A stretch of 64,000 bases of DNA from NCBI GenBank assembly GCA_934102335.1, contig CAKOSP010000001.1, positions 110,197-174,196 on the forward strand, given 5' to 3'. Origin of the DNA: an uncultured Bacilli bacterium. Lineage in GTDB: Bacteria > Bacillota_I > Bacilli_A > RF39 > UBA660. The notes under the pieces were generated by a model, which was not told where the DNA came from, did no database searches, and worked only from the letters and a program-made list of their open reading frames with translations. The position numbers and the translations under genes were made by a program. Within the stretch, counting starts at the first letter, position 1. Each line of letters begins with the position of its first letter. Below are positions 24,859 through 24,907 of the stretch, in pieces.

Positions 24859-24907
24859 CTATGATATTATGAGTATATAATAGGAATGGAAAGTGCAAAA
24901 TATGAAT
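24859..24907 (+). promoter_or_regulatory. Conserved leader/promoter region shared at nucleotide level with 52836-52884 (upstream of paralog P3)
   Basis: ctATGATATtATGAGTATAtaATaGGAATGGAAaGTGCAAaATATgAATATGAAA versus ttATGATATcATGAGTATAgtATgGaAATGGAAgGTGCAAcaATATaAATATGAAA. Roughly 85% identical by eye. Confidence 0.6.

Follow-up and report, generated by a model that had tools for sequence, protein, structure and literature searches.

Why would two genes whose products have diverged widely keep nearly the same non-coding sequence in front of their start codons? The question arises in a 64-kb stretch of DNA (27% G+C) from an uncultured Bacilli bacterium, hereafter the window, to which all coordinates refer, and which carries three paralogs of an unannotated gene family. 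Two of these, P1 and P3, are preceded by a common leader: copy 1 (24860–24910) lies between an ASCH-domain gene (24403–24822) and P1 (ATG at 24908), and copy 2 (52837–52887) lies in front of the P3 open reading frame (ORF; ATG at 52885); the third paralog starts at 62723. We consider it probable that this leader is a shared promoter and 5' untranslated region (5'UTR) module of two putative surface-protein genes, with an extended −10 element, no −35 hexamer and an unstructured transcript, and that the module is kept by selection and has been spread by recombination.

A near-identical leader before two diverged genes

From TATG through the start ATG, the two copies agree in 44 of 52 columns of a gapped alignment (84.6%), with two 1-nucleotide (nt) indels, and the longest uninterrupted identical run is only about 9 nt. 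Local alignment of the P1 and P3 intergenic regions scored 26, compared with 8.2 ± 1.3 (maximum 15) for 2000 shuffles. The raised identity begins at the T block and continues to about position +30 of the gene: DNA 5' of the T run is about 45–55% identical, which is background, and the adjacent coding DNA is mostly 50–65% identical in 30-nt windows, with peaks near 73%. At the protein level, P1 and P3 are 47% identical over the N-terminal 214–225 amino acids (aa) and 32% over the C-terminal 323 aa. The original prediction had placed a leader of about 85% identity directly 5' of both genes and estimated the coding regions at 40–45% aa identity; the leader is where and as it described, precise alignment keeping it well above 70% identity, and the coding estimate was close. 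One further stretch of 97 nt in the C-terminal domains (26210–26306 and 53614–53710) is 78% identical and encodes the most conserved motif of the family, GIYYHD...DNSYRY...NYVCFG, so P1 and P3 coding DNA can locally approach the identity level of the leader.

No third leader-like place in the window scored above 13.5 in local alignment, and a window search allowing up to 3 mismatches returned only the query. A metagenome scan with an 18-nt leader core matched at least 120 loci, and among the matches listed, one was a true leader, that of the P3 ortholog in L193; the other listed matches were chance, coding or unrelated promoter sequences, for example a thioredoxin coding sequence (TATGGTATTATGAGTATACC). 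By these searches, the 18-nt core alone is not specific and the full leader is not a dispersed repeat. We therefore rejected a generic repeat, which the original prediction had raised as a possible outcome at unrelated loci, on the single real leader among the listed matches, the scan itself being uninformative for further copies.

The features of both loci and of the third paralog are as follows.

24830–24841, + strand: hairpin AGCC-GATA-GGCU after the ASCH-domain gene, fold −5.5 kcal/mol with a 4-bp stem; no call by the terminator scan
24841–24858, + strand: T18 homopolymer, one base from the promoter box, where a spacer and −35 hexamer would be
24860–24870, + strand: predicted TRTG-extended −10, TATGATATTAT, with the −10 hexamer TATTAT at 24865–24870, by reading of the sequence
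24871–24907, + strand: predicted start-site region and short A-rich 5'UTR, 84.6% identical to copy 2
24876–24881, + strand: second TATAAT, inside the predicted P1 5'UTR region
24883–24898, + strand: GGAATGGAAAGTGCAA block inside the predicted P1 5'UTR, which may be a weak Shine-Dalgarno (SD) sequence
24908–27103, + strand: P1 coding sequence, 731 aa, with alternative starts at ATG 24902 and GTG 24893
24925–26149, + strand: P1 N-terminal coding module (N-module), 96–99% nt identity with paralogs at other loci, from BLAST extents and diagnostic sites
52799–52821, + strand: hairpin AAAGACUU...AAGUCUUU after a small Flg_new-domain gene, fold −6.0 kcal/mol; no call by the terminator scan
52819–52836, + strand: 18-nt T-rich block TTTTTTTCATATAAAAAT, matching the copy-1 T18 in length and place, not a pure homopolymer (longest run T7), identical in strain L193
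52837–52847, + strand: predicted TRTG-extended −10 of copy 2, TATGATATCAT; the ortholog in L205 has TATGATATTAT, the P1 form
52848–52884, + strand: predicted 5'UTR of copy 2, including GGAAATGGAAGTGCAA, from sequence comparison and folding
52885–54504, + strand: P3 coding sequence, 539 aa, same family as P1, without FN3 repeats
62723–64000, + strand: third paralog, running off the window, with its own TTGCAA-17-TGCTATAAT promoter and a GGAG ribosome-binding site, and without the leader (trace only)

Both copies had been described as following strong terminators. The hairpins are in fact modest, at −5.5 and −6.0 kcal/mol, and neither was called; in copy 1 the hairpin together with the T run is terminator-like.

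The leader does not behave as coding sequence. In P1, the ATG at 24868 reaches a TAA after three codons; the two indels place the leader copies in different frames; and the in-frame P3 ATG at 52846 is ATA in the syntenic ortholog, which also carries a 1-nt deletion. Gene calls reach into the leader at both loci, P0001 starting at GTG 24893 (MQNMNMK...) and P0121 at ATG 52846 (MSIVWKWK..., MSIVWKWKCNNINMK...), and these extensions are probably mis-annotations. A coding extension was rejected because neither start is conserved in frame, and a small upstream ATGGAA ORF because it has no usable SD and is missing from the leader variant L1-a. The earlier view that the conserved stretch is not simply coding is thus upheld.

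An RNA element, the other possibility in the original prediction, found no such backing. The 81-nt leaders of the window have minimum free energies of −4.3 and −3.4 kcal/mol, no better than shuffles (z = +0.69 and +0.32), the predicted UTRs by themselves give 0 and −0.8 kcal/mol, again no better than shuffles, and four 81-nt sequences (the two window copies and two relatives) fold differently from one another. Rfam searches of the leaders gave chance-level matches only (sroB, 17.5 bits with a gathering score of 44, E = 9.8; IMES-5, 16.2 bits with a gathering score of 96, E = 0.5). A structured cis-regulatory RNA (riboswitch, T-box or attenuator) was rejected on these grounds.

The same Rfam search did detect known RNA families at other places in the window: two T-boxes and a PGK motif. 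One T-box leader (30507–30674, 97.9 bits) precedes a class I aminoacyl-tRNA synthetase gene (30711–33239), and the other (41665–41864, 86.6 bits, E = 1e-19, just under the Rfam gathering score) precedes a 1039-aa ORF at 41868. The PGK RNA motif (RF03040, 61.7 bits, 27330–27420) lies ahead of an unannotated 702-aa gene (27531–29639), in a 427-nt intergenic region 3' of P1 (27104–27530) that also holds a canonical TTGACA-17-TATAAT promoter near 27131.

A probable extended −10 promoter with an adjoining T tract

Both leaders open with TATGATAT(T/C)AT, which reads TATG-A-TATTAT in copy 1 (24860–24870) and TATG-A-TATCAT in copy 2 (52837–52847), and in both the TRTG-n-TAnnnT box ends 38 nt before the start codon. 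TRTG-n-TAnnnT is the extended −10 ('−16 region') consensus of low-GC Gram-positive sigma-A promoters. Neither leader has a −35 hexamer, the 18-nt T-rich block filling that position. The box is the one feature common to all leader variants of close relatives, being kept in every close variant compared (TATGATATCAT, TATGGTATCAT, TGTGGTATCAT and TATGCTAAACT; window type, B type and L207). Of 42 TRTG hits in the window, 7 fall in intergenic DNA, which makes up 7% of the window; all 7 are sense-oriented, and six sit 27–72 nt before a start codon. Among the metagenome matches listed, several unrelated ones show the same 11-mer preceded, at roughly promoter spacing, by a TTGAC-type −35-like hexamer, as read from their flanks. 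The fit to the extended −10 consensus and the placement 38 nt before the start lend the logic of the sequence to the predicted shared promoter.

The leader is also well kept in relatives. The P1 leader is exact in near-identical strains (L081, 99.885% over 5.2 kb; L204, 98.9%; L210, 98.7%), and in P3 orthologs in the same synteny (Flg_new gene, P3, rimP/nusA) it is kept at 96% (L193) and 94% (L205). In L205 the copy-2 leader (52837–52884) is the best-conserved local segment, at 93.8% identity; the remaining intergenic DNA is at 84.7%, the gene upstream at 88.6% and P3, over its first 600 nt, at 78.6%.

Taken together, these observations suggest the following mechanism. RNA polymerase with the housekeeping sigma factor would recognize the extended −10 TATGATAT(T/C)AT without a −35 box, and the transcript would begin about 7 nt past the −10, near 24877 and 52854. 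Its leader would be unstructured, A-rich and about 30–35 nt long, with GGAA(A)G placed about 15 nt ahead of the ATG for a possible weak SD contact. The module, extending from the T block into the gene as far as about codon 8, would have a history separate from that of the gene bodies: copying or exchange between expression sites would postdate the divergence of those bodies, and purifying selection on the initiation signals would keep the module.

Several observations weigh against this promoter reading. The TRTG motif is not enriched window-wide (42 found, 45 expected), and a simple sigma-70 scan called no + strand promoter at either leader, because there is no −35. A second −10-like hexamer 11 nt downstream, TATAAT in P1 and TATAGT in P3, may instead be the functional −10. 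Neighboring genes have a strong SD, whereas the SD-like block here is weak and at some distance from the ATG, and the conserved GGAATGGAAAGTGCAA block exceeds what a minimal promoter and SD need. Conservation between orthologs rests on 48 nt, with 3 differences where about 7 are expected, which are small counts. Finally, compact AT-rich leaders resemble one another to some extent anyway: that of the unrelated LemA gene (47286), a similar compact promoter and SD leader, is 67% identical. Unrelated leaders of this compact type have global identities of 60–70%, and the P1/P3 pair alone stands above them, at 84–87%. Alternative sigma factors were dropped after comparison with the sigma-D, E, K and H consensus sequences; GCCGATAG in the P1 hairpin resembles a sigma-D −10, with the wrong spacing, and is missing from P3.

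The T18 run of copy 1 (24841–24858) is the longest homopolymer in the window, the next being T10. Across near-identical assemblies its consensus length is 18 in the window and 17, 18 and 18 in L081, L204 and L210, respectively; T17 versus T18 is the sole indel in 5.2 kb of 99.9% identity, and the single T17 may be an assembly error. In 404 kb covering 79 family loci from other genomes, 12 of 12 homopolymers of at least 13 nt are sense-strand T runs located 62–155 nt before a family gene (L002, L010, L018, L019, L026, L037, L040, L042, L047, L049, L057 and L067), with lengths of 18 (five loci), 19 (four), 20 (two) and, beside an assembly gap, 29. Where such runs are interrupted, the T-rich block is still about 18–20 nt, as counted from printed sequences. 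On these counts, a long, length-constrained T tract abutting the putative −10 is a family-specific promoter feature.

The leader in the family and the exchange of gene bodies

The original prediction extended co-regulation by the leader to the family. The part that stands is that two genes share a predicted promoter module; the third paralog, with a canonical TTGCAA-17-TATAAT promoter and GGAG that is not of the leader type, and most relatives use other promoters, many types being found among 77 scored family loci from other genomes. Genes whose first ~1.25 kb are 96.5–98.6% identical to P1 (24904 to 26147 or 26391) sit behind a 'B-type' leader, TATGGTATCATATTAACGATAGGATAAGTGATT, that is 61–63% identical to the P1 leader, at loci L001, L202, L203, L209 and L211, in other genomic contexts. 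A separate T-tract leader class occurs in other genera, with the consensus GTTAAAAT...ATATCCGTGnGTGATATTGT; many T18–T20 loci share this conserved leader, GTTAAAAT..TATAGTA..ATATCyGTGnGTGATATTGT followed by an SD. In this class a box stands right after the T tract, with an invariant T, A and final T that form a −10 signature, and there is a short inverted repeat, ATATC/GATAT, with G-U-compatible changes. Homology of the window leader to this class was rejected: a profile of the class gave E = 3.1 for P1 and no hit for P3 with nhmmer, and the architecture alone is common. Elsewhere in the third paralog, a repeat finder reported a 104-nt direct repeat of 71% identity between its coding region (63875–63978) and the gene at 39831–41051 (40398–40501).

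Gene bodies have been reshuffled behind the leader. Loci L209 (forward, 128–135 kb) and L210 (reversed, 319–326 kb) lie about 190 kb apart on one 656-kb Hadza contig and share 1,246 nt at 95.7% identity, inverted. L210 has the order recombinase, cotE 3' fragment, ASCH, leader A with T18, N-module, C-terminal domain 2 and rpsP; L209 has deacetylase, 329-aa paralog, leader B, N-module, C-terminal domain 1 and 702-aa gene. The window and L081 combine the upstream side of L210 with the downstream side of L209, and L202 is the reciprocal combination. Each arrangement is found in three independent assemblies (L209 with L210, L211 and L204 for one; the window, L081 and the reciprocal junction L202 for the other), all of which are metagenome assemblies, where mis-joins at the repeat are possible. 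These arrangements fit the product of a single ~190-kb inversion by homologous recombination within the shared N-module, swapping C-terminal domains, and the inversion may be a rare strain polymorphism.

Diagnostic sites locate the exchange. The leader and first codons (to about 24955) follow the upstream flank, sites after 26150 follow the downstream flank, and the interval of about 24955–26150 is a patchwork of the parents, which suggests repeated conversion. Because the crossovers are inside the coding N-module and the leader stays with its upstream flank, we regard the leader as a fixed 'expression site', with the exchange taking place elsewhere. The alternative offered in the original prediction, a recombination hot-spot for cassette exchange, was therefore right that exchange occurs and wrong about its place. 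The family appears, from these comparisons, to be built from separately evolving modules: promoter-leader, N-terminal module and C-terminal domain.

A gene for a large serine recombinase (22252–23913) lies some 950 bp upstream of P1. It terminates a ~9.7-kb insertion in cotE, whose 5' fragment (ORF 14015–14242) matches CotE model positions 2–43 (E = 2.8e-14) and whose 3' fragment (23906–24340) matches positions 39–175. The split cotE offers the recombinase a likely target other than the leader and explains its presence better than action on the leader would. The insertion resembles the sporulation-excised 'skin' elements of Bacillus and looks like a skin-type sporulation intervening element. 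Sporulation genes are represented by CotE in the window and by SpoIVA in related contigs. The insert also carries conflict-system-like genes, namely GT4-conflict/TCAD9, guanylate-kinase-like, NUDIX and ATP-grasp, pyrophosphatase-like and UvrD-like helicase genes.

How, then, does the promoter module compare with other accounts of the shared sequence? We think it unlikely that the leader also holds a specific site for a trans-acting regulator, whether a DNA operator or an RNA site for a GGA-binding CsrA-like protein or a small RNA, that co-regulates both genes. Such a site would account for the GGAATGGAAAGTGCAA/GGAAATGGAAGTGCAA block 3' of the −10, which is conserved between the copies and in orthologs and which a weak SD does not obviously explain, and the strong conservation of ATATCyGTGnGTGATATTGT just before the SD in the leader class of other genera means that regulated leaders plausibly exist in the family. 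Against it, the leaders contain no palindrome or repeat typical of an operator and no stable or conserved RNA structure, the block is missing from the closest other leader variants (L1-a and B type), the match between the window and the profile of the other class is not significant (E = 3.1 for P1, no hit for P3), and no candidate regulator is named. We also find it improbable that the similarity is purely historical, a ~90-nt 5' segment copied by gene conversion or duplication that has not yet decayed and carries no shared regulatory meaning. The family recombines heavily, with the same P1 body behind two leaders and C-terminal domains swapped between loci, and the stretch of raised identity, T block through about +30 of the gene, looks like a conversion tract. 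However, 85% identity with two indels does not indicate a recent event, yet the tract remains distinct from the DNA on either side; no other local segment is as well conserved as the P3 leader between orthologs that retain only 78.6% identity in the coding sequence; and the conserved positions coincide with recognizable initiation signals.

That the leader itself is a recombination site, either site-specific in the manner of Mycoplasma vpma/vsp or a homologous hot-spot, moving cassettes behind a promoter, perhaps by means of the large serine recombinase, seems to us very improbable. A conserved 5'UTR in a variable surface-protein family, a nearby recombinase gene and real cassette exchange all invite the idea, as does the vpma precedent of a 72-nt conserved 5'UTR that is a recombination site, with a T tract upstream of the −10 (PMC2268961). 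But the crossovers fall at about 24955–26150 in the coding module while the leader always co-segregates with its upstream flank, and the longest identical run of about 9 nt is short. In addition, the two copies are direct repeats 28 kb apart with housekeeping genes (tRNA synthetase, PriA) between them, which recombination would delete; the P3 locus is syntenic and stable in relatives; and the recombinase is accounted for by the ~9.7-kb cotE-splitting element. The promoter and 5'UTR module is the reading that we favor over these.

The protein family and comparison with known systems

P1 begins with an N-terminal hydrophobic anchor or signal ending in ...GATYAYFQA, followed by beta-sandwich, FN3-like and C-terminal domains. 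The ...GATYAYFQA ending may resemble SipW-type signals. Sequence searches of the family proteins against Pfam, NCBIfam and PDB returned no match. An AlphaFold2 model of P3 (mean predicted local distance difference test score, pLDDT, 74) shows an N-terminal helix and then beta-sandwich domains, and Foldseek gave weak hits to it, including the TasA fibre 8aur (E = 0.019; template modelling, TM, scores 0.17/0.33). We infer a surface or secreted role because of the N-terminal hydrophobic segment, which does not distinguish a secreted protein from a membrane-anchored one. The family has more than 7,690 metagenome and database relatives, is present in several copies per genome in a number of related genomes, and is unannotated. 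In genome collections its relatives come from uncultured gut 'Bacilli/Tenericutes' metagenome-assembled genomes (MAGs), for example Firmicutes bacterium CAG:460, UMGS686 and many Hadza MAGs, with none from the species of the window itself, and the family is restricted to uncultured gut Bacilli.

On its own the leader is ordinary regulatory DNA, and its value is as a marker of how the family is organized. An element of this kind is known, and this would be a further one, in an uncharacterized gene family and lineage. Two features are odder than the leader: the T18 run beside copy 1, and the strain-to-strain reshuffling of the P1 gene behind it.

The leader itself can be compared with extended −10 sigma-A promoters, which Voskuil and Chambliss reportedly described in Bacillus subtilis. 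The internal spacing is right, there is no recognizable −35, and other genes in the window have the same motif in the same placement. The putative promoter differs in that an 18-nt T block abuts the box and that, one helical turn further on, another −10-like hexamer follows.

For the exchange of gene bodies, the parallel is the sap system of Campylobacter fetus, in which S-layer variation comes from inversions between homologs that face opposite ways and have conserved 5' regions. Both systems have inverted paralogs, a long near-identical 5' coding segment, reciprocal products in different strains, and variable 3' sequence swapped behind a fixed 5' end. In contrast to sap, both sites here carry promoters, so the swap changes the pairing of leader and C-terminal domain and not an on/off state, and the inverted segment is ~190 kb.

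The vpma (M. agalactiae) and vsp (M. bovis) loci share with the P1 locus a homopolymeric T tract directly 5' of the −10 and a recombinase gene nearby. In both of those systems, the conserved 5'UTR (72 nt in vpma) itself serves as the site-specific target of a tyrosine recombinase, with a single promoter at each locus, and the T tract 5' of the vpma −10 was shown to have no part in switching (PMC2268961). In the P1/P3 family, the genes are scattered and each has a promoter of its own, crossovers fall in coding sequence, the recombinase belongs to the cotE element, and the proteins are unrelated and are not lipoproteins.

Homopolymers next to promoters act as switches elsewhere, as in the T-tract 'rheostat' of H. 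pylori sabA (PMC4081817) and the poly(A) spacer switch of M. hyorhinis vlp (as cited in PMC2268961). The P1 leader resembles these in that a long T run adjoins the core promoter of a putative surface-protein gene and differs by one base between 99.9% identical strains. It departs from them in that the strain lengths are near constant (17, 18, 18 and 18), that no −35 or UP element lies upstream to be re-phased, and that the P3 tract is degenerate and cannot slip. We regard it as doubtful that the T18–T20 tract and promoter-leader form a slippage-driven contingency switch or rheostat for a large variable surface-protein family of uncultured gut Bacilli with reduced genomes, and that this switch, with recombination in the N-module that swaps C-terminal domains between expression sites with different leaders, makes up a surface-variation system. 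The parallels of such a system would be Mycoplasma vlp/vpma and H. pylori sabA, with unrelated proteins as its parts; if the T tract or the inversion does tune expression, these commensals would possess a surface-variation mechanism of the sort known from pathogens, with a bearing on persistence in the gut.

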